Part shown: piece by piece, positions 1,982-62,284 of the stretch
Layout: each line of letters begins with the position of its first letter
Numbering within the stretch: the first letter of the stretch is position 1
DNA from: a virus
Lineage: Duplodnaviria; Caudoviricetes
Length of the DNA: 64,000 nucleotides
Reading direction: 5' to 3' (one strand)
IMG/VR virus record: IMGVR_UViG_3300034106_004043
Translations under genes and position numbers: made by a program
Notes under the pieces: model-generated
The model's input: the letters and a program-made list of their open reading frames with translations, nothing else
Database searches by the model: none
Told to the model about the DNA's origin: nothing

Positions 1982-2824
1982 TCAATAATTCATAATTAAT
2001 AGTTCTTCCCCCATATTTTGTACCTTTCCTTTCTTTGCTGCCGCGGCTTTAGCAAATTCTTTCTTCTCCCATTTGTATTCCTCCTTTGGGAACCACTCAT
2101 TCAACAACTGAAAATCGTAGTAAGATAAACTAAACTTACCTTTAATACCTTTCAAACAATCAGCCAATCTTTCGTGGTCTTCCCTATCAAAATCGTGGTT
2201 TGAGTAATAGTTCTCGGTTTTCCAGTACGGCGGGTCAACATAAAAGTATGTTGTTGGACTATCAAACTCTTTAATAACATCTTCAAAATCACCCAATCTA
2301 AACTCTGATATTCTATTGAAATGTTCCACCCATTCAGGTTTAGATAATTTATCTCTAAAGGTAAGATATTTTGACTTATACTTTCCCTTTAAATCAATAA
2401 AACTTGATGTCTCAGGTTTTGAACCACTGAAAACCTGTGTCAGAACATAAGCATACTTCGCAGCAACACCATAATCAGGATAGTTAATTGTTAAACCATG
2501 AGAGAAAATTTCCTTTTGAAACTCATTAAATTGTTCTTTATAAACTGGTGGTGTTACTTCCACACCTTGTTGTTGACATGGGATACTATTAATTGAGGAT
2601 AACAGAGTCTCAGGGTCCTGAAGACACATAAACAAATTATAGTTCAAAGGATTAAAGTCGTTATAAACAACTCTTTTTAAATTAGGATATTGTTTTAAAT
2701 CCATGTTGAAGAAACACCAAAACATACCACCAAATGTTTCAACATACGTTTCCATATCTGTTGGGTAGAATGGGACAATCCACTTACCTATCTTACTCTT
2801 ACCTCCAATATATGATAATGCCAT
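1982..2824 (-). CDS. DNA adenine methyltransferase, Dam/D12 class (target site unknown)
   Basis: YIGGKS at the N-terminus, VETFGG SAM-binding motif, YNDFN, and catalytic DPPY. Confidence 0.9.
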   Translation of the reverse strand: MALSYIGGKSKIGKWIVPFYPTDMETYVETFGGMFWCFFNMDLKQYPNLKRVVYNDFNPLNYNLFMCLQDPETLLSSINSIPCQQQGVEVTPPVYKEQFNEFQKEIFSHGLTINYPDYGVAAKYAYVLTQVFSGSKPETSSFIDLKGKYKSKYLTFRDKLSKPEWVEHFNRISEFRLGDFEDVIKEFDSPTTYFYVDPPYWKTENYYSNHDFDREDHERLADCLKGIKGKFSLSYYDFQLLNEWFPKEEYKWEKKEFAKAAAAKKGKVQNMGEELLIMNY

Positions 2825-2850
2825 AAAATAATTTTTATCTAAATATAATT

Positions 2851-2988
2851 CTAATCTTGGTAGATATCAACCTTCTTAAGTTTTTTACGCGAATACTCCT
2901 TGCCGCATGGTACAACTTTTGTAATCATATTTCGTCTCACAATTTGAGCGACGTGACGTAAGTTAAGTGGTAGTATTTCCTGTTTCAT
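2851..2988 (-). CDS. small basic hypothetical protein (45 aa)
   Basis: Manual translation MKQEILPLNLRHVAQIVRRNMITKVVPCGKEYSRKKLKKVDIYQD*. TATCTTTG lies 4 nt upstream of the ATG. Confidence 0.5.
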   Translation of the reverse strand: MKQEILPLNLRHVAQIVRRNMITKVVPCGKEYSRKKLKKVDIYQD

Positions 2989-2992
2989 ACGA

Positions 2993-3000
2993 CAAAGATA
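2993..3000 (-). promoter_or_regulatory. Bacteroidota -7 promoter element TATCTTTG
   Basis: Exact TAnnTTTG match 4 nt before the ATG at 2988. Confidence 0.6.
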
Positions 3001-3043
3001 TGTCAAAAAAAGTTTAAAATATATTTTTTTATTCGGGATATTC

Positions 3044-3055
3044 TATTTATATTTG
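3044..3055 (+). promoter_or_regulatory. overlapping TATTTAT motif and TATATTTG -7 element in front of the candidate ncRNA
   Basis: Sequence TATTTATATTTG contains both recurrent upstream motifs of this window. Confidence 0.45.
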
Positions 3056-3059
3056 TATT

Positions 3060-3205
3060 CAAGTTAAACGAATGGGGTCAACTTAATAACCCAACCAAAT
3101 CATTAAGTCGGAATTGAACCCCGGTGTGTTCAAAGGCAAAAGCCTCAACCGTTAGGTGAAAAAGATAGAAACCCTCATTACATCGGATGTTTTGGGGGTT
3201 TTTAT
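3060..3205 (+). ncRNA. candidate structured non-coding RNA
   Basis: No ORF, and more GC-rich than its flanks. Nested stems GGGGTCA(3074)/TGAACCCC(3115) and ACTTAAT(3081)/ATTAAGT(3102), hairpin AGGC-AAAA-GCCT(3134), then a terminal hairpin with T-tract. Promoter-like motif directly upstream. Confidence 0.4.
3168..3205. terminator. probable bidirectional intrinsic terminator
   Basis: AAACCCTCA...TGGGGGTTT stem with inner ACAT-CGG-ATGT, and T-tracts on both strands. It abuts the stop of the minus-strand gene at 3206. Confidence 0.6.
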
Positions 3206-3592
3206 TTATACGTAAATTTGGAAATCGTTTTTACCAGTTGTGTAAAATCTTTTCTTACGTATGGTAGTGACAATATTAATTTGAAAATTATAACAATCTT
3301 GTTCTTCTAAATTGGTAATAACATTCAGGAATGGATAATCTTTTTGTGAAACTACTATTGATGAATCTTGTCCTAACTCTCCCTCTTTAATACCTCTTAA
3401 TATTTCAGGTAGTCCAAGGTTTAATAAACTTAAGATTTCATCATTAGTAATTACTTCATCTTTACCATGTCTATACCTTTGTGTATTTCCGTGCGCCGAG
3501 TTTTCAATAGATACTTTAACTTTAATATCTCCAAAAAGCTTTCCAATCCTTTCTTCATTTATTATTTTTACTATACAACTTAAAAGGTTCAT
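3206..3592 (-). CDS. hypothetical protein, possible virion internal protein
   Basis: ORF track 3206..3607. The ATG at 3592 (MNLLSCIVKIINEE) is preferred because it lies 4 nt after TATTTAT. Confidence 0.7.
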   Translation of the reverse strand: MNLLSCIVKIINEERIGKLFGDIKVKVSIENSAHGNTQRYRHGKDEVITNDEILSLLNLGLPEILRGIKEGELGQDSSIVVSQKDYPFLNVITNLEEQDCYNFQINIVTTIRKKRFYTTGKNDFQIYV

Positions 3593-3612
3593 AATTATAA
3601 ATAACACAGAAT

Positions 3613-3774
3613 ATGGAAAATTTAAAAAAAACCGAAGAAAAAAAATGTACTAAATGTGATAAAATGAAACAAAGTATCGTTCCTCAAGTCGCAATTGGGG
3701 TGTTAGTATTTAGTTTCACTATCTATGGTATAGTTGAATTTGTTAAAGACATTATTGAATTACTTACCAAGTAA
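3613..3774 (+). CDS. small membrane protein (53 aa) with CxxC
   Basis: Manual translation MENLKKTEEKKCTKCDKMKQSIVPQVAIGVLVFSFTIYGIVEFVKDIIELLTK*, with one hydrophobic helix. It fills the intergenic gap. Confidence 0.55.
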   Translation: MENLKKTEEKKCTKCDKMKQSIVPQVAIGVLVFSFTIYGIVEFVKDIIELLTK

Positions 3775-5892
3775 TTCAATAATTTTATCTTTTACCATCT
3801 CAGATGTTATCTTTTTAGAACATTCAAACATTTTATCATTCCCCTTATTTATTGGACACCAATTCCAATCACCTGGGTCTAATCTAAACTTATTTGCACA
3901 TCCTCTACAAGTATTTTCAGGTGCACTAACTTTATAAACATTATCATAAGGTTCGTTAAACTCTTCAGTAAATCCTGAAATCAATACTGTTGGGATATCC
4001 AAAGCCCAAGTAACCCATGAAATACCACTTGATATTCCAATAAAGAATTCACAGGTAGATAACTCTTCAATCAGTTTATAGATTGAGCCAGAAGGGTTTT
4101 GTTTAGCACCTTTAGGATAAAAATTACCCATATACCCATCTTCCTCTTTTGAATAAATGATTACCTCATAACCAAGAGATATAAGATAATCAGTAATTTC
4201 TTGCCATCCTTTTGGGTTATTCCAATATTTGGATTGAGCGGTTGAATGAATACCCAATCCAACTCGTTTTTTCTTTAACTTGTTAGGGTTTTTAATTAAA
4301 GGTTTTACTTCCTTATATTCCAAACCTAAAATGTCTGTCGCGGTTTTTTGTAATGGACCTAATTTAAAGTCACTTGGGTGTCTATCAGTTTTAACATTAT
4401 CACCATCGTAAAACCAACCTATCTCATACATTGCGTATAGGTTATCAACCGTACTGCCAGGGGGGACAAATTGTATTTCAGGATATTGTTTTACAAACAA
4501 ATCGTTAAAGAATGTTGAACAGATAACCTTACAATTATGTTTTTTTCTAAATTCCTCAGCGTAAGGTGCCCAAGCGAATGTATCACCTAAAGATTTAGAA
4601 TCTAAAGCGATATATACTCGTTTGTTCTCCGCATTATATTTCTTTTCACTAATTAAATTACCTTCAGAGTAAATTTTTAAAGTATACTCATCAAAATATT
4701 TCTTACTTAATCTGACCCACATATTACAACCAATCTCCTCACGATATTCACAGTCACCACTCTGATTCCAAAACTCAACCAAATATCGTTTATCACTATT
4801 ACCCTTAATTTCAACTAACGCTCCGTTGATATAATGATTAATTACTTCAATTTTTTCAACCATCTCTTTTGGTTTTATTTCAGTATTTTCAAATACTTTA
4901 TCAAATCTTTGTTTTGTCTCAAGACTATTCAAATTTTTTCTACTGTTAATAAGGTCTTCATAAATTCTAACCATCCTTTTAGTAATAACACTCCAATCGT
5001 ATTTTTGTCTATCTAATTCAGTGTTATTTAAATATAAATCATAATTGTCAATTACTTGTTTAATACCACTAACTATTTGATTTACATCTCTTTCAACTAT
5101 AACCATTCCTTCTATTGTTTGTGAACCCAAATAAGTACCAACAACGGGTATATTACAAGATACCGCCTCTAATAATGTTAGGTTTGGATGTCCGGCTTCC
5201 AACATAGATGGATGTAAGAAGATTGAATGACTTTTATATAGTTCTAATATTTGTTCTTCATTTGGATTTGAGAACATTAAAGTTAACTTATCGTAATTTA
5301 ATAAGTCATTGTGATGTTCAAAGAATATTCTGTTATTTTCAGGACCAGCAACAGTAATAGGTAAATCTAATTTGATTGCGGATTCAATCGCATATCTAAA
5401 TCCTTTTCTATCGTAGGTTGAATCACCACCAATACCATTGTTTGCTAAACACAATAATTTATGTTCAGTTCTTTTTGGATTGTCATTTTTAAAGAAATCA
5501 GTATTAACACCATGTGATAGATAGAACAACTTATCTGTCTCATCAAAGTAATCAACTAAAAACTCAGCGTGGGTGAAAGATATCACAGACCTTTTAATTG
5601 CTTCTAAATTTTGTTGGTAGTTAGATGACTCCTTACCGTAATAAACAACGTGGTGGTCATGTAATGAGAAGATATAAGGGATACCTCTATTTGCCGCTTC
5701 AATAGCCAAATTAGCCATATGAATATGAATAATATCACTACTGTTAGTATCTACCTCATTAAGATATTTTATATCACATTGGTGTCCTAACTCTTTAATA
5801 TTGTTGTAATATTCCCATATTACTTTTTCAACCGCCCCCCAACCATTTGGTGGTATTGTAATAATTCCAGGTGTTACTTGTGTAATTCTCAT
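3760..5892 (-). CDS. fusion of a GT4 glycosyltransferase and a TibC/AAH-like (autotransporter heptosyltransferase family) domain
   Basis: N-half: PPNGWGAVE and EAGHPNLTLLEA (GT4 E-x7-E). C-half: SKSLGDTFAWAPY, FIGISSGISWVTWA, and C-x2-C-x13-C-x11-C (CRGC...WCP...FECSK) resembling the iron-finger motif. Confidence 0.8.
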   Translation of the reverse strand: MRITQVTPGIITIPPNGWGAVEKVIWEYYNNIKELGHQCDIKYLNEVDTNSSDIIHIHMANLAIEAANRGIPYIFSLHDHHVVYYGKESSNYQQNLEAIKRSVISFTHAEFLVDYFDETDKLFYLSHGVNTDFFKNDNPKRTEHKLLCLANNGIGGDSTYDRKGFRYAIESAIKLDLPITVAGPENNRIFFEHHNDLLNYDKLTLMFSNPNEEQILELYKSHSIFLHPSMLEAGHPNLTLLEAVSCNIPVVGTYLGSQTIEGMVIVERDVNQIVSGIKQVIDNYDLYLNNTELDRQKYDWSVITKRMVRIYEDLINSRKNLNSLETKQRFDKVFENTEIKPKEMVEKIEVINHYINGALVEIKGNSDKRYLVEFWNQSGDCEYREEIGCNMWVRLSKKYFDEYTLKIYSEGNLISEKKYNAENKRVYIALDSKSLGDTFAWAPYAEEFRKKHNCKVICSTFFNDLFVKQYPEIQFVPPGSTVDNLYAMYEIGWFYDGDNVKTDRHPSDFKLGPLQKTATDILGLEYKEVKPLIKNPNKLKKKRVGLGIHSTAQSKYWNNPKGWQEITDYLISLGYEVIIYSKEEDGYMGNFYPKGAKQNPSGSIYKLIEELSTCEFFIGISSGISWVTWALDIPTVLISGFTEEFNEPYDNVYKVSAPENTCRGCANKFRLDPGDWNWCPINKGNDKMFECSKKITSEMVKDKIIELLGK

Positions 5893-6575
5893 ATTAAACT
5901 AAAATTTTCATTTTTTCTTTTATCATAAGTTTCCCTATCTGTTGAAGCATATTTTTCATTCTCAATATCTAGTTCATCCATTGACCCTGGGTTAAAATAA
6001 TAATGTTTATGTAAATAAATAAAATCACCAATATATGTTATTTTATTTAAAATTTTACCGACTTGAGTAAGTTCATCATCACAGTAAAAAGAATAATAAA
6101 TAGGGTTAAATATATAACCAAATCTTTCATAATATTTTCTACCCATAACAGGATGTGTACAAATTAATTCATTTTGTATACCATCAGGAAAATGTAAAAT
6201 ACCGTCTAAATCAGGGTAAAACTCTAACATATATTTTCTAATATGTAAATCAATATTTTCTTTAGGAAATTCAAAATCGTCAGCAATATTCATAACAATA
6301 TCCCAATCAGATATTTTATTAATATTATAATTTGTGGCAATTATTTTACCTTTAGAGTCCGATGAAAATACTTTTATAATACTTGAATATCTATGATTTA
6401 AAATAAAATTTTTAATTTCATCTGAATTCATTGTATCATCGTCATTATCTATTGAGACTAAAATTATACAATTTTCATAATCGTATAATTTATCACATAA
6501 CTCATTAATTACATTAATAAATTTTTTAGGTCTACTCCTTGTTGCAAAATTAAATAGGATTTTTAAATTTTTCAT
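5889..6575 (-). CDS. GT-A fold glycosyltransferase (GT2-like)
   Basis: FATRSRP N-terminus, IDNDD, IADD (DxD-like), YCDDEL. 4-nt overlap with the next gene. Confidence 0.7.
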   Translation of the reverse strand: MKNLKILFNFATRSRPKKFINVINELCDKLYDYENCIILVSIDNDDDTMNSDEIKNFILNHRYSSIIKVFSSDSKGKIIATNYNINKISDWDIVMNIADDFEFPKENIDLHIRKYMLEFYPDLDGILHFPDGIQNELICTHPVMGRKYYERFGYIFNPIYYSFYCDDELTQVGKILNKITYIGDFIYLHKHYYFNPGSMDELDIENEKYASTDRETYDKRKNENFSLI

Positions 6576-6576
6576 A

Positions 6577-7317
6577 CTATTTTGTAAAAACTTTATATTC
6601 TTTATCTATAAATGACTCACCATCTACTTGAGTTGTTATTCTTTTATTTAAAACACCCATGGTCAATCTTTGTTCTGAACATATTATATTGAAAAACGTG
6701 TCAGCACAATCCCATCTATGTGTTCTCAACTGGTTCATTATTGTTTTACGTGATTTCTTTGAAAACATTATACATTGTAAACCAATTATTTTATTTGTAA
6801 TAAACAATAAATCTTGATTTGGTATTTCCCTAACCACATCAGATTGGTGCCATCCATAATCTAAGGTTTTAGTATCACCGAATGAAAAATAAGAAATGTC
6901 TTCCTGATTAACAATACTACACACCTGATTAACTTTATCTATAAACTCCTCAATCGGAACTTCTATAATACAATCACCTTCACAGACAATTAAGAAATCT
7001 AAATCATTATCAAATTCAGATAAGATACCTATTTTAAATGCTTCAAAACATCCGTAGTGAGCCGGTGTTAAAGCGTTACCATATTCAGGGTCATTAACAT
7101 CTTCATACTTACCCATTCTAACATTATGTGGTCTAACACTAGTATGAATTGGAGGTAAAGAAGCATATAACTCGTTCTGATGTAAAACATATTCAATACC
7201 ATAAGGGATTACCTGTTGTACAGATTTTCTTGATTCTTTTTCTCTATGTTCATTCTGTGTTGTCTGTAAATGAACTAATTTAATCTTATAATTCATATGA
7301 TTTTTTACGGTCTCCAT
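6577..7317 (-). CDS. GT25-like glycosyltransferase
   Basis: HYGCFEAF...FLIVCEGD resembles the GC..SH...ILEDD core of GT25. The start may be the second Met (MNYKIK). Confidence 0.55.
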   Translation of the reverse strand: METVKNHMNYKIKLVHLQTTQNEHREKESRKSVQQVIPYGIEYVLHQNELYASLPPIHTSVRPHNVRMGKYEDVNDPEYGNALTPAHYGCFEAFKIGILSEFDNDLDFLIVCEGDCIIEVPIEEFIDKVNQVCSIVNQEDISYFSFGDTKTLDYGWHQSDVVREIPNQDLLFITNKIIGLQCIMFSKKSRKTIMNQLRTHRWDCADTFFNIICSEQRLTMGVLNKRITTQVDGESFIDKEYKVFTK

Positions 7318-8900
7318 AATCCAATACCACCAAACCCTTGTGAGTGTTGACCATTTAATTTAACATTACCAGATGACTTAGTACATACTAAATTAATTTT
7401 TGTACCTTCATCTAAATCTTGCCAAAATTTATAAACCTGACCGGCGTAACTATCGGCGAATATATGGTTAGGGTCAATGTCGTGGAAACCAATCACACCA
7501 CGTGGTGATAATAAATTTTTATATAATTCAAAATCATGTTTAACACCATCATATGTGTGGTCACCATCAATAAAAATAAAATCGTATTTTGGACAAAAAT
7601 CTTTTACTTGTTCAAACATATCTTTAGTATGTGAGTCCCCTTGGAAGAATTTCCAATCTTCTCCGTGCATAAAATGATGTATAATTGATTGTCTTGGTTC
7701 AATATCTACTGAAACTTTCTTACCCGTTGATAGTTTTGACATCAACCAAAAGGTACTACCCATTGTCCCAATTTCTAATATATTATGAGGTTTAAACCCT
7801 CCTAGCCAATAGGATAATGTTAATATTTCTTCATACACCTGCATGAAAATACATTTTTCCATCAAATCAAAATCCAAACAATAATCCACTAACTCTTTTG
7901 GTTCATTAGTTTTTATAATATTTGTTTTTGTTGATTTAGAAAGTTGTTTAGATAATAAATTCACTATTGAATCGTAATAACGAATATGGTGATTATTATT
8001 ACATAGTTTAGATGTGTCAACTAATCCATCAGGTAGTGTATAGTCTTTAGTCCAATCCAAATATTCAATAAAACCAATTTTATTTTTCCAATATGTATCG
8101 AATAATTTAAAACAAAGTTTTCTATCATCTTCAGTTCCTAATATATATTCATATAAAAATCCATCTCTCATCGGTGGATTAGGTGACAATATAACAATAC
8201 GATTATTATAAATTTCTTTAATTTTTAAAATTGAATTAAAGTAACTATCCATCAACTCTAAACAAGCTTCTTTTAAAGTAATGTTCTTGTTTTCACAATG
8301 TTTATGAATTGTGTATCTGAAATCTATCTCACCCAAATAGAACACTAAAACATCTTTTTCTTGTATCGGAAGAGAATCAAGTAACCCTAAGAAGTCACCA
8401 TTAACAAATCGATTTAAACTTAATGAAGTCTGACTAACCCTTATAGGTACATGTCTCCCTACCCTATCAAATTTATTATTAGTATCGCCAAAACTAGCCC
8501 AAGCGTTTGAATCCCCTATAATCCAAGCTCTTTTAAGATATTCAGGATTAGATAAAGAATGATTACGCATTTCAAAAGATTTATGGTGAGTCTTAATTAC
8601 CTCATCATATATTATTTGATTAGTACTTAAATCTTCAACTTTAATTCTAACACCAAATTTTAAATTAGGTTTTTCATTATTATCAATTTCATCAACACTA
8701 AATCGAGTCCAAAAATTAATATTATTTGGAATTGTAACAGTGTCCGAACCTGGTATGTATTCGATATTAAAAAATGGGTCTAGTATAGTTAATTTTATAG
8801 TACTTTCATTACTGATTGGATTTTCAACACTATAATGTATTTCACAAACAGATTCTGTAATTAATCGTTTTTCTTCCAATCTAATTAAATTAAACTTCAT
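7305..8900 (-). CDS. multidomain protein: unknown N-terminal domain + SGNH/GDSL-like domain + class I SAM methyltransferase (Methyltransf_24-like)
   Basis: IIGDS and LGEID blocks (SGNH-like); LEIGT and DFIFIDGDHTYDGVKHDF...GFHD (Methyltransf_24 type). Confidence 0.7.
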   Translation of the reverse strand: MKFNLIRLEEKRLITESVCEIHYSVENPISNESTIKLTILDPFFNIEYIPGSDTVTIPNNINFWTRFSVDEIDNNEKPNLKFGVRIKVEDLSTNQIIYDEVIKTHHKSFEMRNHSLSNPEYLKRAWIIGDSNAWASFGDTNNKFDRVGRHVPIRVSQTSLSLNRFVNGDFLGLLDSLPIQEKDVLVFYLGEIDFRYTIHKHCENKNITLKEACLELMDSYFNSILKIKEIYNNRIVILSPNPPMRDGFLYEYILGTEDDRKLCFKLFDTYWKNKIGFIEYLDWTKDYTLPDGLVDTSKLCNNNHHIRYYDSIVNLLSKQLSKSTKTNIIKTNEPKELVDYCLDFDLMEKCIFMQVYEEILTLSYWLGGFKPHNILEIGTMGSTFWLMSKLSTGKKVSVDIEPRQSIIHHFMHGEDWKFFQGDSHTKDMFEQVKDFCPKYDFIFIDGDHTYDGVKHDFELYKNLLSPRGVIGFHDIDPNHIFADSYAGQVYKFWQDLDEGTKINLVCTKSSGNVKLNGQHSQGFGGIGLWRP

Positions 8901-8904
8901 ATTA

Positions 8905-9702
8905 TTATTCTGATTTATTTATTGTATAAGCACTTGTTGATGGTTCAAAACCTAAATTGATAATGTGGAATCTTTTATGACATAAAGATTTATATTTTTT
9001 TGACCACCTTTCAGCAAATTCCAATTCAACTTTAGTTTCATTTGGATTGAATGTTGTTGAAAATTCCCCTATTGACAATAGTTTTTTGACATTATGAACA
9101 CCAGGTCTTAATGAAAAACTTGGCCAGTTAATATATGTTAACCATAAGTCAGGTGTTTGAACTACTTGTAATGCCGAAACATCATCATAAAATAAATTAC
9201 AATTCAATGGTAAATTTGGGTCATAGTACCACTCCCAATAATTTTCATATTCAACAGGTTTGATATTATCAGGAAATTTTTTAAAACTCTGAGAATATCC
9301 AAAATAAGCATAACCATTATTTAAACTTAACGCATCTATCGCTTCAGTAATCTTGAATAAATCCATAAAAAGATAATCATCCTCCAATAAAAAACAATAA
9401 TCAGAATCAGTCTCGATTAATTTATCTCTCCAAGAATTTAATACTCTAGCGTGTCTAAAATTATCAGGAAATGAATTCGGGTAAAAGTGAGTGATGATTT
9501 TGTTTGTATTTGGAAAATAATCATTTAGTAATTTTTCCATTTCTCTTTTATCGTCATTATTAGATGAGTCGTCAAAGAAAATTATATCATCTATTATTTC
9601 CGTATCTAAACAAAAAACAGAAAATGCTTTAATAACACGTCTTAAGAAATGTAGTCTTTTACAAGACATTATTGTTAAAGATATTTTTTTATTATTATAC
9701 AT
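8905..9702 (-). CDS. GT-A fold glycosyltransferase-like protein
   Basis: TIMSCKR, FFDDSS and LLEDDY motifs; sits inside the glycosyltransferase cluster. Confidence 0.6.
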   Translation of the reverse strand: MYNNKKISLTIMSCKRLHFLRRVIKAFSVFCLDTEIIDDIIFFDDSSNNDDKREMEKLLNDYFPNTNKIITHFYPNSFPDNFRHARVLNSWRDKLIETDSDYCFLLEDDYLFMDLFKITEAIDALSLNNGYAYFGYSQSFKKFPDNIKPVEYENYWEWYYDPNLPLNCNLFYDDVSALQVVQTPDLWLTYINWPSFSLRPGVHNVKKLLSIGEFSTTFNPNETKVELEFAERWSKKYKSLCHKRFHIINLGFEPSTSAYTINKSE

Positions 9703-9718
9703 TTTTTAAATTTTAAAA

Positions 9719-11455
9719 TTAAGAAAATACCACATAATCAAGAATATTTTCATTTATAATATCGTATAAAAATTCATTTGTCTGAGTGTCATATACCGAT
9801 ACTTTTTTAATTTCACTATTAAAAATATTAAATGACCAATGACCATAATTTTCCAAAGTATAATAATAAGTTTCATTACTATCATCTAAAAAATTAACAA
9901 TTATTTTTCTTTCTGATTTAAAATTATTGTAATTATACGATAATACCATTTTAGAATCTTGTCCTAAAATATTATAAATTTTAATTGAGCATCCGTTAAA
10001 CTTTGATGATATATTACTAACTGTCGTTTCAGTATTCCAAATCGTACCCACAAAATCTTCATTCATGGATATTTCACCATTTTTTCTAATCAAAAATCCA
10101 TTATCTTTTTGATTAATATTGTGATAAAGATATTTTTCAACATTAATAAAATCAGTACCAAATCCATTATTTTGTAAATAATTTTTATAATCTTCCTCAC
10201 AATTAATCCTATTAATTATCTGTTGGAAGTATTCTATTTCACAATAAAAATAATGGAACGAAACATCTCTACCTTCATTAAAATAAAACATTCCCTTTTT
10301 GTTTTGAGTAGAACAAATCACTGGTACAGTTGTCATATATTCATAACCTTCTTCACTATATAAATCATCAACTTCAATTCTTTGGAAATGTGTAAACCCA
10401 AATGACTTACACAAATCTAATGAGTTAAACAAATTAACCATAACAGGTAATCCATGTTTTTGTATTGTATTTGTAACTTCATGAGTTGTTAATGAACCAA
10501 GGTTTTTCCAAAAAATAACTGGTTCGGAATTAGTGTATTCACCTTCAAAAAGAATGTTATTTGAGTTATATAAATGATAATCAACAATTTTTAATATATG
10601 TTCAGGAACAATAGTATTAGACACAAGAAGTATTGTATGGTTATACTTTTTTAAGTTATTAATACATAACTCCAACTTATTTAAAACATTTTCATTATGG
10701 ATAAAACAATCGACTATTGTTATTGTTTTAAATTCATCTTTAATATTTTGTCTTTTGAGTTCATTAGAAACTATTATGTTTTTTTTGTTTTTTTCTTCTT
10801 CCGAAATATTTGAAAACATACCATCATTTGATATTCGATAAATTCCCCCACATTTATGAATACACTTAATTAAACCGTGTTTACTAATTTCATAATTAAG
10901 CGGCCAATCAACATAAGGTAAATTTGTAAAATAATCTTTAATTAAATTTGGTATGTTTCTAAATACCCTCGCAAAAGATGCATGATTAATAGTTAATAAA
11001 TCATCTGTAGTTATATCGTCAAGAAATGAACTAATAAACAATTCAGGAACTGTAGGTATCTTGGTACCATCGGGATGCAAATATCTTGTTCCTGTACAAA
11101 CCATACTATAATTTGGACTGTTCTCTAAAAATTCAACTTCTTCATTTAAGATTGTATAATTATCAAAATAATCATCTCCGTCAATATAAGCAATGTATTT
11201 TGTTTTACAGTAATTTAATAAAGTTCTAATATTTTCAAAACCTCCTAAATTAGTATCACCATTTAAAATTATTAAATTAGGGTATTTTTCTTTTAATTTA
11301 ATTAAAACATCTTTAGTATTATCTGTCGACCCATCATCCCTTACTATCACATCAAACCCATAATTAATTTTTTGAGAGTATATTGAATCAATACACTCTT
11401 CAATATATTTTTCAAAATTATAAGATGGTACTACTACCGTAAGTATTTTTTTCAT
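9719..11455 (-). CDS. GT2 glycosyltransferase with a large unknown C-terminal domain
   Basis: VVVPSYNFEKYIEECIDSI, DDGSTD and YIAYIDGDDY are canonical GT2 motifs. Confidence 0.85.
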   Translation of the reverse strand: MKKILTVVVPSYNFEKYIEECIDSIYSQKINYGFDVIVRDDGSTDNTKDVLIKLKEKYPNLIILNGDTNLGGFENIRTLLNYCKTKYIAYIDGDDYFDNYTILNEEVEFLENSPNYSMVCTGTRYLHPDGTKIPTVPELFISSFLDDITTDDLLTINHASFARVFRNIPNLIKDYFTNLPYVDWPLNYEISKHGLIKCIHKCGGIYRISNDGMFSNISEEEKNKKNIIVSNELKRQNIKDEFKTITIVDCFIHNENVLNKLELCINNLKKYNHTILLVSNTIVPEHILKIVDYHLYNSNNILFEGEYTNSEPVIFWKNLGSLTTHEVTNTIQKHGLPVMVNLFNSLDLCKSFGFTHFQRIEVDDLYSEEGYEYMTTVPVICSTQNKKGMFYFNEGRDVSFHYFYCEIEYFQQIINRINCEEDYKNYLQNNGFGTDFINVEKYLYHNINQKDNGFLIRKNGEISMNEDFVGTIWNTETTVSNISSKFNGCSIKIYNILGQDSKMVLSYNYNNFKSERKIIVNFLDDSNETYYYTLENYGHWSFNIFNSEIKKVSVYDTQTNEFLYDIINENILDYVVFS

Positions 11456-11467
11456 TATTTATCCCTA

Positions 11468-11836
11468 TTATTTTTTTAGAATTATTGCATTCCCCTCAAT
11501 TAAAATTTCATCATCTTTAAAAATTATTGTTTTTAAAAAAAACTTATTTCCGTCTTTTTTATCAAGTTCTACAATCACCTCAATTTCATCATTAATAAAA
11601 CAAGGGTTTTTAAAAATCAAATTTTGTTGTAGATATATTGAACCCTTACCAGGATATACTTCAGATATCAATCTTGAAAAAAAGGAACTTAATAACATCC
11701 CGTGAGCAACTCTTTTACCAAAAATAGTTGATTTAGCGTATTCCTCATCTAAGTGTATTGGGTTTTTATCTCCTGATAACTCAGAGAAATCTTTAACCAT
11801 ATCTTCAGAAATTAAAATTTTTTCAGATACTCGCAT
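11468..11836 (-). CDS. MaoC/PhaJ-family (R)-specific enoyl-CoA hydratase
   Basis: FSELSGDKNPIHLDEEYA...VAHGML hotdog-fold hydratase-2 motif. Confidence 0.9.
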   Translation of the reverse strand: MRVSEKILISEDMVKDFSELSGDKNPIHLDEEYAKSTIFGKRVAHGMLLSSFFSRLISEVYPGKGSIYLQQNLIFKNPCFINDEIEVIVELDKKDGNKFFLKTIIFKDDEILIEGNAIILKK

Positions 11837-12375
11837 TCTAAATTTATTATATTTTTTTTTCTATCCTTTATTTCTTTAGCCGGTATTCCAACCGCAATTT
11901 TAGACTCAGATATGTTTTTATTTACTAATGATAAACTACCTATAGCACTATAATCTTCAATCTCAACATTTGGTAATATTATAGTACCCGCACCAATAAT
12001 AACATGTTTACCTAATATGACTTTACCTGAAATCACATTTGTAAATTCTTTATTAACTGTGGGATTTGTCATGAATTCCCCACTATAATCATCTGTTGAT
12101 GTATATATGGATACTCTAGAAGATAGTCCTGAAAAATCTTTCATTACAATTTCTTCATTACCCATTAAACTACAGAAAATTGCAATATGGACATTATTAC
12201 CTAACTTAATTCCTCCATTACCAGCACTTATCACACAAAAATCATCAATTCTAACATTATTACCCAATTCAATATTTTTAGGATTATAAATTGAACATCT
12301 ATTAGAAATTAAAACATTATCCCCAATAGATTTGAAACCTATTTCGACCAACTCATTTTTACTATAAAATCCCAT
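11812..12375 (-). CDS. hexapeptide-repeat sugar N-acyltransferase, AntD-like
   Basis: FYSKNEL..IGFKSIG.NVLIS...SIYNP..I..GNNVRIDDFC and DDYSG...P closely follow the Bacillus AntD sequence as I recall it; left-handed beta-helix hexapeptides. Confidence 0.8.
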   Translation of the reverse strand: MGFYSKNELVEIGFKSIGDNVLISNRCSIYNPKNIELGNNVRIDDFCVISAGNGGIKLGNNVHIAIFCSLMGNEEIVMKDFSGLSSRVSIYTSTDDYSGEFMTNPTVNKEFTNVISGKVILGKHVIIGAGTIILPNVEIEDYSAIGSLSLVNKNISESKIAVGIPAKEIKDRKKNIINLECEYLKKF

Positions 12376-13028
12376 TATTTTTTATATATTTCAAATTTTG
12401 ATAAGTCAGGATATGGTAGTTCCAAATCTTCATTATGTTTAGGTGTACCATCCATGTTATAAAATTGATTCATAAGTAATAAACCTCTTGAAGCAATTTC
12501 AGGCATCATGTAAAAATTCCATCCTAACATATCAAAATTATCATCATGATACGATACTTCATTCCTACCTGAATATCTCGCTCGTTTAAACCACTTGTAA
12601 GCCTCAAAATCGTCAGTTAAGATTGCACCACCTTTACCAAGTTTTAAGTGTTTATATGGGCCTGTAAATGATAAACACATATGTGTTCCTGGTATATACA
12701 TATCACTTGTAAATCTTAATGCCGAATCCCAAACATTTGTTGGTGATAGTTGATACGCTCCTTTTAATGTTGACCCATAAACAGGTTCAAACTCGACTTT
12801 ACCTCCAGCGTGGATAATCTCGCAAGGTACTGACGGGTATGTTCTACTTGGTATTTTAATTGTTTTACCATTAATTTTCTCATAATACAACGCTAAAAAT
12901 AAAGCGTTACTTTGATTATCAACTGTAACAGCATATGGTGCACCAGCATATTCAGCTAATTGTTCTTCAAATTTTTTTGTGACATCGTAAACCGATGATG
13001 ACAATGTACCAGGTGTTCTTAATTTCAT
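12375..13028 (-). CDS. DegT/DnrJ/EryC1/StrS-family sugar aminotransferase (short form, 217 aa)
   Basis: FEEQLAEYAGAPYAVTVDNQSNALFLAL, and SFTGPYKHLKLGKGG (PLP lysine region), GWNFYM. Confidence 0.8.
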   Translation of the reverse strand: MKLRTPGTLSSSVYDVTKKFEEQLAEYAGAPYAVTVDNQSNALFLALYYEKINGKTIKIPSRTYPSVPCEIIHAGGKVEFEPVYGSTLKGAYQLSPTNVWDSALRFTSDMYIPGTHMCLSFTGPYKHLKLGKGGAILTDDFEAYKWFKRARYSGRNEVSYHDDNFDMLGWNFYMMPEIASRGLLLMNQFYNMDGTPKHNEDLELPYPDLSKFEIYKK

Positions 13029-13029
13029 A

Positions 13030-15636
13030 TTATTTTATTTTTTTAGCAATATAATTATCAGTTGTTGTATGCGTAATTGTAAATCCAAATTCATGTAGTT
13101 TTTGTATTATTTTTTGATTACTATTTTCATCATTAGTTTTTTCAACACACAATAATCTACATTTTTTTAATTTATTTTGTATTTCATCTATTACAATTAA
13201 TTCATGCCCTTCAACGTCAATATTAATGAAATCATAGGTATCTTTTTCTAAATCATAATATTCAACAATATCATTAAAATTGTATACTATTATTTGATTT
13301 TCTTTCCAACTCATTCCAATAAATCTTTCTTTATTTTCAGGATGTATAGTAGATAATATTCCCTGCGGAGCATCGCTCACATCCCAGTTCAAACTTTCAT
13401 GTATATTTATCACATCTGTTTTATTTGAAACACCCGCATTAATACATTTAATATTTTTATTTTTTTTATATAAATTCTGTAATTTTAAAAAAGCAGTTTG
13501 GGTAGGTTCAACACAAACTCCATCCCATCCTAATAATGCAAGCGCGTGTGTATTTGAAAATGTTTTACCGTCATTCGCACCAATATCTAAAAATTTATTT
13601 GTTTTTGGGTCTTCCCCATCAAAAAATGATAGAATTATTTCCTGTTCATTGTTTTGTGAAAAATCTAAAATGTCATTGTTAACTTTATTTTTAGGTTTAG
13701 CAAAGATTACTCCATGTTTAGCGTTTTTATCCGCTTTAGTTTTACGTCCCATTTCATAAATGATAATATCATATTCAAAATCATTTTTTTCAAGTTTTTC
13801 AAGTATGATATTAATTTGTCCATTGGTATTTTCATGAAACTCAATCATAAATCTATCCACCAATCCAATCTGTTCATCAGTAATTGATTCAAAAATTGGG
13901 TATTCACCACCCTCAATATCACATTTAAATAATGATATTCTACCATAGTCATTATCTTTGTAGATATCATCAATAGTAATAGTGTCACAACTAATTAAAT
14001 TGTTAAGTTGACCATATTCTCCCACATTACCGTCAAAAACATTTGACCCAATAGTTGAATTTTCTTTTGAAAATCTGAAATCAATCTTGGTATGTTCCTT
14101 GTAAACAGGGTTCATATAAATGGTTGATTTAGATAAATCACCATCTAAATGATATTCAATACTTTCCCTTAGGTATGGATTTGCCTCAACTAAAATAACT
14201 TTTTTAGCATTTATGGTATACATGTACTTAGCGAATAACCCAACATTAGCACCAATATCAATTACAGTATCAAGATTTTCTAACTTTAAATCATCAAAAC
14301 ATCTATCAACAAAAAACTCATAATAGTTAATGTAATTACAATCCAAAGGTTTAAATTTAAATTCAGGTATTCTTGGGTAGAAATTAGGATTAACAATTAA
14401 CTCTTGACCAAAAACTAATTCGTTTGTTTCCACATCATAGAACTCAACTAAAAATCCTCTAAAGTTAGGATTGTCTTTGAATTTTTTAATATGAATTGGG
14501 ATAGGCATTGTCCAATAAAATATTGGGTATTCCAAAGGTAAATTAAACCAATACATCGGAGCCTTTGAAGTTATGTCTCTAATACTAACATTAAAATCAA
14601 ACTTTTTATTGCCGGTATAGTTAATGGTAATCTGATTATTATCACCATTAAAATCAAAACTGAAAAGAGAGTCAATACCCCCAACATTTAATACATCCAT
14701 CATATTATTTACATCTTTATCTATATCTCCAGTTAAAAATGTAACTTGAGGTAGTTTATCATATTTTCCACAATACACATCCAAATTATACATCATCATA
14801 GGAATACCATATTCAATAGCCTCCTTAATGGCAATTGGATTTAATTCTTTATTATTTCTATCCCCTTTTGATGGGAACATAAACAAATCGGACGCTTCCA
14901 AAAATTCATTTACATTATCCTTTTCACCCCAAATAATACAGTTTTCAGGTTTGTTATTCATCAGTGGTTCCCAATAACTTCTAAAGTTATCTGCCTGATT
15001 TCCAATGAAATGAAATTTAATTTTACTATTTTCTAACTTACGAGCAATTTCAAAAATGTATTTTTGATTTTTTCTTTCAGTGAATAACCCAACATTAACA
15101 ACATGTTTCCACCCTTTATCGAACCCAAGTTTTTCTTGGAGCATGTTCTTTCTTTTTTCTCTGTTTTCAATAGGATACTCAATTACCTCATAAGGTATGT
15201 CAAACATTGAATACTGAATAGCATTAAACACACTAACAAAGATAAACTTGTCAGGAAACCAAACCTTAGATGTTGGTTTAAAACTTGAATCGTGCGTGGT
15301 TTCAAATATTTTATATGGACGATTTTGTCTATAAATTTGTCTTGTAATGTTATTATCCATGAAAAATTCAGGGAACTCCTCCATTGATATAATGTCAGGT
15401 TGGAAATCGTTAATAACATCAATTAAAACATTCTTATCATCCCATAGAGTAATAAGATTGTCCTCACCAATCATATTTTTAATTCTGTTCTTCTGAACAA
15501 CAAAATCCCAAGAATAACACCCGTATTCAACACACTTTATAATATAATCGTCTTTAAGAAGTTGAATCTTATTCGTAGTAACCTGTGGTAGTCCCCCAGT
15601 AGATAGGTGTGGGACTATAAATAATATTTTCTTCAT
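13030..15636 (-). CDS. GT4 glycosyltransferase fused to two FkbM-family methyltransferase domains
   Basis: PHLSTGGLPQ, RKNQK and ELNPIAIKEA (GT4). Two FkbM cores: IDIGANVG...KCDIEGGE and LDIGANDG...NIDVEGHE. ATG at 15636 preferred. Confidence 0.8.
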   Translation of the reverse strand: MKKILFIVPHLSTGGLPQVTTNKIQLLKDDYIIKCVEYGCYSWDFVVQKNRIKNMIGEDNLITLWDDKNVLIDVINDFQPDIISMEEFPEFFMDNNITRQIYRQNRPYKIFETTHDSSFKPTSKVWFPDKFIFVSVFNAIQYSMFDIPYEVIEYPIENREKRKNMLQEKLGFDKGWKHVVNVGLFTERKNQKYIFEIARKLENSKIKFHFIGNQADNFRSYWEPLMNNKPENCIIWGEKDNVNEFLEASDLFMFPSKGDRNNKELNPIAIKEAIEYGIPMMMYNLDVYCGKYDKLPQVTFLTGDIDKDVNNMMDVLNVGGIDSLFSFDFNGDNNQITINYTGNKKFDFNVSIRDITSKAPMYWFNLPLEYPIFYWTMPIPIHIKKFKDNPNFRGFLVEFYDVETNELVFGQELIVNPNFYPRIPEFKFKPLDCNYINYYEFFVDRCFDDLKLENLDTVIDIGANVGLFAKYMYTINAKKVILVEANPYLRESIEYHLDGDLSKSTIYMNPVYKEHTKIDFRFSKENSTIGSNVFDGNVGEYGQLNNLISCDTITIDDIYKDNDYGRISLFKCDIEGGEYPIFESITDEQIGLVDRFMIEFHENTNGQINIILEKLEKNDFEYDIIIYEMGRKTKADKNAKHGVIFAKPKNKVNNDILDFSQNNEQEIILSFFDGEDPKTNKFLDIGANDGKTFSNTHALALLGWDGVCVEPTQTAFLKLQNLYKKNKNIKCINAGVSNKTDVINIHESLNWDVSDAPQGILSTIHPENKERFIGMSWKENQIIVYNFNDIVEYYDLEKDTYDFINIDVEGHELIVIDEIQNKLKKCRLLCVEKTNDENSNQKIIQKLHEFGFTITHTTTDNYIAKKIK

Positions 15637-15707
15637 ACCTAAAAAAAATAACAATATTTATTTCATAAATCCATAGAATATAGTATCTTTACAAAAAAAT
15701 ATACACA

Positions 15708-16096: not shown

Positions 16097-17017
16097 CTAC
16101 CCCCTCTTGTGTTTAACGTACATATTAACATAGAAATCACCAATACCGTCATTTTTAAAACCCTTACCTTTAACACGTAGGGGTTTTGTTGTATCTATCT
16201 CTTCAGGTAATTTAATATTTAGACTACCTGATGGATGTGGGACATCTAAAGTATCTTTATTAAAATCATCTAACGACATTTGATAATTGTATACTAAGTC
16301 GTTGTTTACCTTATCAAAACCATCCTGTGGTGTTATTTTAACTTTTAATATTAAATCACCAAACAAACCATTATGATAATCACCCATAGATGATGCTTTA
16401 ATCAATTGACCATCAGATATACCATGAGGTAAATTGATATTAATAGTTTCAAACTTATTATTTTTACCTTCACCAGCACAGGAGAAACAAACATTCTTTA
16501 ATGAATATCCCTTACCTTGACATGAGTTACATGTTGTCTGTAAAATATTTGAGAAGAAAGAATTACCAACTCTTTGTACTATTCTACCTGAACCATTACA
16601 AGTGTTACAAGTAATTCTATCCCCACCCTGTCCATTACAGGTGTTACAATTAACTTTTCGACTAAACTGAACATCTATATTATGAGCTAAAAAAGAATCA
16701 ATTGTACCTATATTTAAATCAACTACTTTATCAGGTGCTCTTTTCTGTTTTGGACCCGCCATATTATTAAACAAATCGTTAAACATACTAAATGGGTCTG
16801 AGTCAAACCCTCCAAACGGATTACTACCACCTAAATCATATTGTCTTCTTTTTTCATCATCACCCAAAGTATCATACGCTTGAGAAATTTTCTTAAATGT
16901 CTCTTCATTACCACCTTTATCAGGGTGATGTTCAACTGCTAATTTTCGATACGCCTTTTTAATTTCATCTTGTGTTGATGACCTATCGACTCCAAGTATT
17001 TCGTAAAAATTTTCCAA
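16097..17017 (-). CDS. dnaJ: DnaJ co-chaperone (J domain, short G/F region, four CxxCxGxG motifs, C-terminal domain)
   Basis: FYEILGV...IKKAYRKLA...HHPDKGG, followed by [24 protein letters not shown] and CFSCAGEG. Confidence 0.92.
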
Positions 17018-24807: not shown

Positions 24808-25608
24808 TTACATATAATCAAACAAGGTAACACTTTCATTTCGTAACTTACGAAGAGCTTTTTCTTTAATTTGTCTTACTCTTTCCTTAGTTAAACTGAA
24901 ATCTGAACCAATATCTTCAAGTGTTCTTGGGGTTCCTGAGATACCATAATAGTCTTCAATAATCTGTCTTTCACGTTCATCCAAAATATTCATAATACTG
25001 AATAATCCGTCTTTAAGTTGTTCCCCATTATTGAATATCTCATCAGGCATATCACTGTCTTTGTTCACAATCAAATCAATCAATGTATCACCATCCTCAT
25101 TAATCTGAGTTTGTAGGTTAATCGTTGATGGTAGGTTAGCAAATCGGTCATCAATTCTCTCACCTGTCTTGTCTGTACGTTTCTTTTCTTTATATAAATC
25201 TTGGATAACATTCACAGGGATACGGATTGTTCTTGAGTGTTCATTCAAAGACTGTAGAATAGATTGTCTAATCCACCACACTGCATATGATATAAAACGA
25301 AGGTTCTTTGTCCAATCAAAACTCTGAATTGCCTTCATAAGCCCTATATTCCCTTCCGCAACTAAATCACTAAAATCAACACCTTGTCCCTGATACTGTT
25401 TAGCGACAGTAATGACAAATCGTAGGTTACCCTCTAACAATTCTTTACAGATGCCAGCCTTTTCACTATCAGGTGTCTCTGGGTTTTGCATCGTAGCTGA
25501 CAGTTCCCTTTCTCTTTCAGGAGTCATTACCTTAATACGTCTAAGTTCTTTAAGGTAGATTTGTACTTCGTCTTGATTAATCGGGATAACTTGGTTTTTT
25601 TCCATCAT
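24808..25608 (-). CDS. RNA polymerase sigma70-family factor, Bacteroidota RpoD-like (no region 1.1)
   Basis: NLRFVITVAKQYQ, DLVAEGNIGLMKA, RFISYAVWWIRQSILQSL..HSRTIRIP and TLEDIG..F.LTKERVRQIKEKALRKLR. Confidence 0.92.
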   Translation of the reverse strand: MMEKNQVIPINQDEVQIYLKELRRIKVMTPERERELSATMQNPETPDSEKAGICKELLEGNLRFVITVAKQYQGQGVDFSDLVAEGNIGLMKAIQSFDWTKNLRFISYAVWWIRQSILQSLNEHSRTIRIPVNVIQDLYKEKKRTDKTGERIDDRFANLPSTINLQTQINEDGDTLIDLIVNKDSDMPDEIFNNGEQLKDGLFSIMNILDERERQIIEDYYGISGTPRTLEDIGSDFSLTKERVRQIKEKALRKLRNESVTLFDYM

Positions 25609-45823: not shown

Positions 45824-45833
45824 AATTAAATTT

Positions 45834-46706: not shown

Positions 46707-46718
46707 ATTACATACAAA

Positions 46719-61914: not shown

Positions 61915-61915
61915 A

Positions 61916-62284
61916 TTAAATAGATACGTAACTATTACCAATTTTTATCGTTAGTTTTTCTCTGATTGGTAAAATATAAGTTCCTGTATCAGTGATAAAA
62001 ACAAACTCTCCTTCATAAAGTCCCTCTCTACTTGTATCGCTTGAAGTGAATTTATAATAAACATAGTATTCTGTCTCAGCATTTGGGTCAATAAATGTCT
62101 TTTCAACAAACCCTCCTTTCTTATTCAGAATTTTGTAACCCCCTGTTTTAACATCTATCATGGAAAAATAAATCAACGAGTTTTCTATCAGTGACATAAA
62201 CTCTGTTATGTCAGCAATACCATCTTTAACCACTTGCATTTTAAGAACAGGCAGTGTTGCACCTTTGTTAATAAAAAATTCCAT
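61916..62284 (-). CDS. putative structural protein, stand-alone BppU-like Ig domain
   Basis: MEFFINKGATLPVL...YKFTSSDTSREGLYEGEF...ILP; paralogous to the N-terminus of 60706..61914. Confidence 0.7.
   Translation of the reverse strand: MEFFINKGATLPVLKMQVVKDGIADITEFMSLIENSLIYFSMIDVKTGGYKILNKKGGFVEKTFIDPNAETEYYVYYKFTSSDTSREGLYEGEFVFITDTGTYILPIREKLTIKIGNSYVSI

Follow-up and report, generated by a model that had tools for sequence, protein, structure and literature searches.

A phage gene cluster with a TibC/Aah-type O-glycosyltransferase domain and a candidate collagen-like fibre acceptor

Among viruses, Mimivirus makes a methylated N-acyl viosamine. In bacteria, the flagellin glycan of Pseudomonas syringae is capped by 4-N-(3-hydroxybutanoyl)-2-O-methyl-viosamine, made with an aminotransferase, an acyltransferase, a methyltransferase and a dedicated transferase (PMC3927599), and the anthrose operon antABCD of Bacillus anthracis has been described along with the collagen-like protein BclA (PMC10050317). 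The TibC/Aah-type enzymes, represented in NCBIfam by TIGR04414 ('autotransporter strand-loop-strand O-heptosyltransferase'), have so far been known only from the maturation of bacterial adhesins. Here we describe a cluster of ten genes in a 64,000-nucleotide stretch of DNA (the window) from a tailed phage, IMG/VR record IMGVR_UViG_3300034106_004043. Comparison of sequences leads us to propose that the cluster probably encodes a cytoplasmic protein O-glycosylation pathway with which the phage would coat its own collagen-like fibre. Sugar-gene clusters of large phages are usually read as tools for altering the host surface, whereas the evidence presented here points to self-glycosylation of fibres. 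A full-text search of the literature found no paper linking a TibC-type enzyme to phage fibres.

The protein that carries this proposal is P1 (3760-5892, minus strand; 710 amino acids [aa]), in which a GT4 domain identified with Pfam (approximately residues 1-330) is fused to a TibC/Aah-type domain (residues 369-705). Residues 369-705 scored 258.4 bits against TIGR04414, for which the NCBIfam equivalog cut-off is 200, and the C-terminal half of P1 matched the TibC structure 4RAP with an E-value of 9e-53. We took the list of functional TibC residues from PMC4358343 and examined these positions in an alignment of 56 distinct phage homologues. The catalytic Asp110, along with Thr226, Lys230 and Trp305 (TibC numbering), was invariant in all 56, as were the four cysteines of the iron finger (339, 342, 358 and 370); Asp110 and these cysteines also aligned in P1. 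The position responsible for heptose stereoselectivity was Gly or Ser in the phage homologues. These data support the presence in the cluster of a bona fide protein O-glycosyltransferase domain, a predicted enzyme whose class is clear, and we propose that it is the initiating enzyme acting on Ser/Thr. When the TibC-like domain was modelled in complex with 61 residues of the fibre, the score was 0.02 and the outcome 'no answer', which argues neither for nor against binding. A TibC-like domain was also noticed at the C-terminal end of a 1226-aa protein of an isolated cyanophage, Microcystis phage Mel-JY01 (L002, 4750-8430); the sole annotation of this protein is 'methyltransferase FkbM', and near its gene is one annotated as 'cytidylyltransferase like'.

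The proposed acceptor is a giant collagen-like fibre protein of 4135 aa with globular ends, encoded at 48269-60676 on the minus strand. It contains 1805 Ser, 604 Thr, 1309 Gly and 8 Pro residues, and includes one run of 1224 unbroken Gly-X-Y (G-S/T-S/T) triplets. An earlier note on this DNA, made from its letters, had described a Gly-X-Y protein with roughly 2,400 Ser/Thr, in agreement with the 2409 of 4135 residues that we counted. To follow the repeat across genomes we used the nucleotide pattern (GGN WSN WSN)x6, with the reversed pattern as a control; the giant gene contains 568 matches to the pattern and 0 to the control.

The TibC-like domain and the repeat were found to co-occur. The domain is present in 4 of 50,697 phage records (isolated or curated; approximately 0.01%), and in approximately 250 IMG/VR contigs among 2.9 million viral contigs. 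Among 50 IMG/VR records with the domain, 34 carry the repeat pattern, including all five records that are at least 90% complete; the reversed pattern had zero matches in any of the 50. The reverse test was performed on 44 arbitrary viral records picked by the repeat pattern alone, with a threshold of E < 1e-25 for the domain. Twelve of these carry the TibC-like domain, including three of the six near-complete ones, which is an enrichment of more than a thousand-fold over the base rate and extends over many lineages. The smallest of the carriers is a complete genome of 66 kb and the largest is LR756501, of 735 kb, in which the pattern was matched 1130 times; the domains of the carriers are 35-57% identical to that of the window. 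Large phages lacking the domain (immuto, LR756500, LR756511 and LR756502) also lack the repeat.

Enzyme and repeat are also close to each other in many of these genomes. The repeat is found within 10 kb of the enzyme gene in 25 of 80 TibC-bearing loci. In two loci (L097 and L079) a GT4-TibC gene is followed on the same strand, 57 and 95 bases on, by a gene for a GSS/GTS fibre of 1049 and 1467 aa, respectively. This order mirrors that of the aah-aidA and tibC-tibA gene pairs. No BLAST match was found between the terminal domains of these two fibres and those of the giant protein of the window; the terminal domains being unrelated, it is the repeat itself that is the shared element. The earlier note had proposed, as a check, to ask whether the cluster occurs together with GSS/GTS giant proteins. 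Co-occurrence was found for the TibC-like domain and for the partners that make up its core (GT4, a GT-A enzyme of the GT25-like type and a methyltransferase) but not for the anthrose-like trio of genes described below, MaoC and AntD being found together in only one other of the 80 loci (L024). Its proposal that the phage coats its own fibres with a glycan is supported in this way for the TibC-type core, which tracks the fibres, and not for the trio. These comparisons give good support to glycosylation of the fibre as the predicted function of the TibC-type core genes.

The core partners were identified by a survey of the same 80 loci. A GT4 domain accompanies the TibC-like domain in 59 loci, homologues of P3 are found in 38, often as the C-terminal domain of a neighbouring multi-domain enzyme, and a methyltransferase is found in 30. 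P3 (6577-7317, minus strand; 246 aa) had no match in Pfam, and is assigned by its predicted fold as a GT-A (GT25-like) glycosyltransferase. An AlphaFold model made from an alignment of phage homologues had a pLDDT of 76 and a pTM of 0.81, and the top Foldseek matches of this model were to the GT25 collagen galactosyltransferase COLGALT1, the Mimivirus proteins R655/R699 and other GT-A enzymes, with E-values down to 1e-8. In one locus (L082) the P3-like and TibC-like domains are found in a single open reading frame (ORF).

All ten genes of the cluster are packed minus-strand ORFs (3760-15654), with intergenic gaps of -25 to +16 bases. For P10 the ATG at 15636 is a likelier start than the TTG at 15654, and this places the cluster at 3760-15636. 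P2 (5889-6575; 228 aa) is a small glycosyltransferase that matched phrog_14945 ('glycosyltransferase') at 2.6e-12 and HpsN weakly; it is absent from near relatives and variable between close relatives. P4 (7305-8900; 531 aa) is also variable between close relatives. Its C-terminal half is a sugar-type O-methyltransferase (Methyltransf_24/CmcI), with an E-value of 5.8e-14 for Methyltransf_24 and 25.7 bits for RMNT_CmcI against a cut-off of 23.2, and an atlas search with its N-terminal half gave only sub-threshold SGNH-like leads. No match was found in family searches with P5 (8905-9702; 265 aa), to which no family is assigned; homologues 39-61% identical occur in relatives, and the gene is among the variable ones. 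P6 (9719-11455; 578 aa) has an N-terminal GT2 domain (Glycos_transf_2, 1.3e-23) and possibly a second GT-A domain in its C-terminal half, residues 200-578 giving a weak lead to a seventh glycosyltransferase domain with an atlas score below 0.9. P10 (13030-15636; approximately 868 aa) combines a GT4 domain, a weak class-I methyltransferase domain and an FkbM methyltransferase domain, based on Pfam and NCBIfam.

These assignments bear out much of the description in the earlier note, which had listed ten contiguous co-oriented genes, at least six glycosyltransferase domains and three methyltransferase domains. The ten genes are present as described. Six glycosyltransferase domains are supported (the GT4 and TibC/Aah halves of P1, P2, P3, the N-terminal GT2 of P6 and the N-terminal GT4 of P10), the sixth being supplied by the match of the P3 fold to GT-A enzymes. 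Two methyltransferase domains are solid, the Methyltransf_24/CmcI domain of P4 and the C-terminal FkbM domain of P10; the third, in the middle of P10, is weak at 21.7 bits, under the Pfam cut-off of 27, yet it is kept in relatives.

Hydrophobic segments of membrane-spanning length are absent from all ten proteins, and domain scans of the cluster found no flippase, polymerase, ligase or lipid-carrier (priming) transferase. This composition fits glycosylation of proteins in the cytoplasm before virion assembly, as occurs with TibC, flagellins and BclA. Scans for sigma-70 promoters and terminators performed no better on the cluster than on shuffled sequence, and therefore no operon boundaries were drawn from them.

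The trio of genes that follows P6 has the content expected by the earlier note, which had seen a DegT aminotransferase, an AntD-like acyltransferase and a MaoC hydratase next to one another; the three are adjacent at 11468-13028 on the minus strand, with the qualification that the DegT-like protein is merely 217 aa in length. P7 (11468-11836; 122 aa) is a MaoC/PhaJ-type (R)-specific enoyl-CoA hydratase, proposed to supply the 3-hydroxyacyl-CoA. It matched MaoC_dehydratas (PF01575) at 2.3e-20, with 72.9 bits against a cut-off of 27, and PhaJ (1IQ6) at 3e-21, in an alignment that pairs the catalytic-motif Asp and His. P8 (11812-12375; 187 aa) is an AntD-type N-acyltransferase of the left-handed beta-helix (LbH) class, predicted to act upon a nucleotide-linked 4-amino-4,6-dideoxyhexose. 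Its likeness to AntD was confirmed by matches over its full length (residues 2-186) to the structures 3VBI to 3VBP, the value for 3VBI, which we take to be the AntD structure of Kubiak and Holden (2012), being 1.1e-51; the next-best structure or family was at 2e-8. Bacterial homologues of P8 are 34-62% identical and widespread in polysaccharide loci. In 59 of 78 homologous bacterial loci a full-length DegT gene lies near the AntD-like gene, most often ending just upstream, which is the position taken in the phage by the P9 gene, whose end overlaps the start of P8. A MaoC neighbour was found in one of the 78 loci, in Pontibacter. A hydratase and an AntD-type acyltransferase beside an aminotransferase-like gene fit the synthesis of an N-(3-hydroxyacyl) amino-deoxy sugar, which would be the predicted product of the trio.

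P9 (12375-13028; 217 aa), which we refer to as mini-DegT, is a shortened sugar aminotransferase-like protein, the norm for the DegT family being approximately 370 aa (360-400 aa for the full two-domain fold). It matched PF01041 in two stretches, scoring 56 bits where the cut-off is 19.8. Two residues, Asp101 and Lys126, show no variation, and the second of them falls at the position of the lysine that forms the Schiff base in solved enzymes (replaced by Ala in 9BGR). A model of P9 had a pLDDT of 80, and all 50 matches listed for it are sugar aminotransferases or dehydratases of the DegT family, with TM-scores of approximately 0.5-0.6 by query and approximately 0.33 by target, part of the fold being covered. 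At least 8000 homologues of approximately 209-217 aa make up the mini-DegT family, many of them 78-86% identical. Aminotransferase activity is plausible for P9 on the basis of these features.

Comparison of close relatives indicates that the trio belongs to an exchangeable part of the cluster. In four relatives 88-97% identical to the window (L022, L025, L029 and L032; positions approximately 2660-4050, corresponding to 11461-12375 of the window), an FkbM gene and a PglD-type acetyltransferase gene replace the MaoC and AntD-like genes. In these four the mini-DegT forms, by fusion, the last part of the GT4-methyltransferase protein, and the separate FkbM gene comes next. A swap of N-acyltransferases behind one aminotransferase-like domain is what would be expected for alternative N-acylations of one amino sugar. 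In the 80-locus survey, mini-DegT together with an LbH transferase was found in close relatives and in three distant loci. Because the trio does not co-occur with the fibres and is replaced in relatives of 88-97% identity, we consider it a strain-level decoration and not the core of the system; an anthrose-like sugar as a rare strain-specific decoration is plausible. A 240-kb relative has a second locus with genes for an RmlD-like reductase, an SDR, a 4,6-dehydratase, a second mini-DegT, an LbH transferase, GT17, GT2, a UDP-GlcNAc 2-epimerase and a GT2_5-GT4 fusion. There the mini-DegT gene (L220:10568-11191, minus strand) is located between those for the 4,6-dehydratase and the LbH acyltransferase. 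The 4,6-dehydratase of the second locus indicates that this lineage can make 4-keto-6-deoxy sugars itself.

From these results we infer a pathway, including its acceptor, the order of its steps and its donor sugars. The TibC/Aah-type domain of P1 would put the first sugar on Ser/Thr residues of the 4135-aa fibre, and virion proteins with Pro-Thr linkers might be modified too. The chain would then be extended by the fused GT4, the GT25-like P3, the GT2 enzymes and the GT4 of P10, and the methyltransferases would O-methylate the sugars. A side branch in this strain would make a cap for the chain, starting from a nucleotide-linked 4-keto-6-deoxyhexose produced by a phage or host 4,6-dehydratase. 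The mini-DegT would aminate this sugar, and the AntD-type enzyme would N-acylate it with 3-hydroxyacyl-CoA from the MaoC hydratase, giving an anthrose-like or modified-viosamine-like sugar. That the glycan might stabilise the helix, shield it from proteases or mimic the host, as the earlier note suggested, is speculation.

Several observations weigh against this pathway. P1 has Leu at the position of the sugar-binding Arg286, a position that varies among the phage homologues and at which no basic residue is conserved. A search for a phage heptose pathway in five large TibC-bearing genomes, of which three are rated complete and two are close relatives, gave no match to GmhA (SIS_2); one of the five has a CTP_transf_like gene. 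In view of these two findings the donor may be something other than ADP-heptose. As to the co-occurrence, 16 of the 50 domain-bearing records lack the repeat (mostly fragments below 50 kb), 32 of the 44 repeat-bearing records lack the domain, and both Mel-JY01 and LR756504 have the domain with no strict GSS/GTS repeat; the records are related to one another, and the counts do not represent phylogenetically independent events. Within the window the enzyme gene and the giant gene are 42 kb apart, and the repeat length of the giant gene may be an assembly artefact. Mini-DegT is short of approximately 40% of the normal fold, and its activity may not be that of an aminotransferase. Nearly all other phages that have both TibC and the fibre lack the amino-sugar module, so that what ties this sugar to the fibre is its membership of the operon.

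The main rival explanation is that the cluster builds or decorates lipopolysaccharide (LPS), capsule or another polysaccharide of the host, for example to block superinfection. Clusters of sugar and glycosyltransferase genes in jumbo phages, and their variability between relatives, have been read as serving capsule or LPS modification (Iyer et al. 2021, PMC7824862). The strain-level swaps of cassettes described above would also fit diversification of surface antigens, and bacterial homologues of the AntD-like protein are found in polysaccharide loci with Wzx flippases, as in Pontibacter. Against this reading, neither a membrane protein nor a flippase, polymerase, ligase or priming transferase for a lipid carrier was found in the cluster; and although P6 matches a 'GtrB-like O-antigen conversion' PHROG, the match is limited to its soluble GT2 domain. 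The family of the core enzyme is known only for protein glycosyltransferases (PMC4358343), and remodelling of the host surface would not predict that this enzyme tracks and adjoins repeat-fibre genes across unrelated phages. We consider host-surface remodelling rather unlikely for these reasons. The DNA of the phage would be the acceptor if the glycosyltransferases and methyltransferases decorated modified bases for evasion of restriction, and phage glycosyltransferases that build glycans on DNA have been described in the preprint of Pyle et al. (bioRxiv 10.1101/2023.12.21.572611). A gene at 62314-63984 weakly matches a beta-glucosyl-HMC glucosyltransferase PHROG and DNA methylase genes lie nearby, but no base-hydroxymethylating or TET-type enzyme was seen in domain scans of the window. 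We know of no role in DNA modification for an enoyl-CoA hydratase, an AntD-type acyltransferase or a TibC-type protein transferase. Hypermodification of DNA would also leave the co-occurrence with fibres unexplained, and we regard it as very improbable.

A further alternative retains protein glycosylation and changes its target. The acceptor could be another protein (one of the Pro-Thr-linker proteins, a capsid or tail protein, or cargo secreted to the host surface), or the system could be split, the TibC core acting on the fibre and the amino-sugar branch on something else. Three Pro-Thr-linker proteins are encoded in the window, and in mycobacteriophages it is the subunits of the capsid and the tail tube that carry glycans (Freeman et al. 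2023, in the form cited by PMC12619734). The failure of the amino-sugar module to track the fibres, and the TibC-bearing phages that have no strict GSS/GTS repeat, are also consistent with this alternative. Against it, distant TibC-bearing phages share the G-S/T-S/T repeat and not the terminal domains of the fibres, and the enzyme gene directly adjoins the fibre gene in L097 and L079; we consider a different or split acceptor unlikely.

The giant fibre gene is surrounded by other genes for structural or candidate acceptor proteins. Directly downstream are three tandem Gly_rich_2 paralogues (44915-47621, minus strand) of approximately 300 aa each and approximately 30% Gly, which matched PF21722 and tail-fibre/minor-tail PHROGs; the C-terminal 159 aa of the giant protein itself gave weak, repeat-driven matches to tail-fibre PHROGs. 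The earlier note's mention of several Pro-Thr mucin-like proteins corresponds to three Pro-Thr-linker proteins. One of 411 aa, recognized from its translated sequence, is encoded directly upstream of the giant gene (60706-61941, minus strand). The other two are possible acceptors: a 1025-aa protein with leucine-rich-type repeats (41497-44574, minus strand; translated sequence and phrog_15511), and an 817-aa protein with a C-terminal beta-propeller (34592-37045, plus strand; Pfam Lactonase/YNCE). The large putative virion proteins encoded at 34592-37045 (plus strand), 39964-41439 (minus strand) and 41497-44574 (minus strand) start with a similar Cys module, consisting of ..CC(S/D)(G/S).., conserved aromatics and C..C...PC, which is repeated after the first Pro-Thr linker in the last of these; the module may serve the three proteins as a common domain for anchoring or folding. 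The gene at 62314-63984 (minus strand), two genes upstream of the giant gene, encodes a 556-aa protein with an HtrL_YibB domain that may be a further fibre-linked glycosyltransferase. An ORF on the opposite strand of the repeat (48780-60134, plus strand; 3784 aa) was rejected as a gene, being a mirror frame of the triplet repeat. The repeat region has a G+C content of approximately 49%, compared to approximately 30% elsewhere. Close relatives have 261-477 matches to the repeat pattern compared to 568 in the window, and the repeat is either polymorphic in length or partly mis-assembled.

The window as a whole has a G+C content of approximately 30%, with nearly all genes on the minus strand, and encodes phage functions, including tail-fibre-like proteins, an SbcC-like nuclease, an amidase, a sigma factor, DnaJ and DNA methylases. 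Viral contigs of 240 kb in IMG/VR share near-identical stretches with it (88-97% nucleotide identity), and single genes have more distant relatives in Flavobacterium phage immuto and in several 'huge phages' of 460-735 kb. The DnaJ gene and the aquatic relatives point to a host among the Bacteroidota, and the phage may belong to the recently named 'moraphage' lineage (PMC12619734), the description of which reports four core glycosyltransferase groups and does not mention collagen. A nucleotide search with the whole cluster had no match in the 50,697 phage records, and no contig was matched in an exact-protein look-up with the AntD-like protein. The nearest record (G001), which is 26% complete, has the repeats and lacks the AntD-like gene. 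Among the neighbouring genes, that for a full three-domain DnaJ (16097-17017, minus strand) directly adjoins the glycan cluster, and a sigma-70-family factor is encoded at 24808-25608 (minus strand). A structure search with the 728-aa protein encoded at 37742-39928 matched nothing.

A broader reading, which we put forward tentatively, is that in many uncultured aquatic phages with genomes of 66-735 kb a BAHT-derived, GT4-fused enzyme would hyperglycosylate proline-free G-S/T-S/T fibres together with a GT25-like enzyme and methyltransferases, and that each strain would owe a glycan coat of its own to swappable cassettes, the one here being for an anthrose-like N-hydroxyacyl amino sugar made with a minimal aminotransferase of 210 aa. 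If this is the case, a large class of phage tail fibres would be glycoproteins, with consequences for host recognition, for stability and for shielding from immune systems and proteases. Glycosylated Ser/Thr could then explain how Gly-X-Y repeats that are proline-free and thousands of residues long are ordered. Such phages would represent a counterpart to the glycan diversity of bacterial spores and flagella, and would offer compact soluble systems for producing rare N-acyl amino sugars as well as collagen-like materials with dense O-glycosylation. Comprising thousands of members of approximately 80% identity, the mini-DegT family would be a minimal sugar aminotransferase worth study in its own right.

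The phage system is a plain member of none of the four systems to which it can be compared, those being TibC/Aah, anthrose/BclA, viosamine/flagellin and the glycosylation of virions. With Mimivirus fibrils and the capsid and tail-tube glycans of mycobacteriophages it would share the use of the virus's own sugar-nucleotide tailoring enzymes and glycosyltransferases to coat the particle, and P3 resembles R655/R699 of Mimivirus by fold, but the hosts, the enzyme families and the acceptor proteins are different. To our knowledge, neither of these viral systems uses a BAHT-type enzyme or a G-S/T-S/T collagen-like acceptor. The viosamine island of P. syringae (vioA, vioB, vioM, vioT, vioR and vioS; PMC3927599) is similar to the proposed pathway in placing an O-linked Ser glycan on a filament protein and in a gene content that differs between strains. 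It is cellular and not viral, however, its transferases are unrelated, and it relies on a ketosynthase and a reductase that assemble the hydroxyacyl group on acyl carrier protein, whereas the phage would use a MaoC hydratase on a CoA ester.

The resemblance to the antABCD/BclA system of B. anthracis includes a collagen-like, Thr-rich surface filament as the (proposed) acceptor, an AntD-type N-acyltransferase (1e-51) with an aminotransferase-like gene just upstream, an enoyl-CoA hydratase to provide hydroxyacyl-CoA, and methylation, anthrose being 2-O-methylated as stated in PMC6222408. Unlike the Bacillus system, the phage has a 217-aa mini form of the aminotransferase in a module that is a rare accessory among related phages, a fibre that is almost proline-free and approximately ten times longer than BclA, and a TibC-like initiating transferase. 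From TibC/Aah (BAHT; 4RAP/4RB4; eLife 2014, PMC4358343) P1 differs in being phage-encoded and fused behind a GT4 domain, in contrast to the standalone bacterial enzymes, and in not having the conserved Arg286. The acceptor of TibC/Aah is a beta-helical autotransporter passenger, whereas that of P1 is presumed to be a Gly-X-Y fibre; no autotransporter is present in the window, and the recurring neighbour of the TibC-like gene is the Gly-X-Y fibre. P1 nevertheless passes the family model and keeps the catalytic Asp, Thr226, Lys230, Trp305 and the four-Cys iron finger. TibC and Aah are soluble cytoplasmic enzymes that hyperglycosylate Ser residues of a long repetitive surface protein, as is proposed for P1, and some phages place the enzyme gene directly upstream of the gene for its presumed substrate, the same arrangement as in tibC-tibA.

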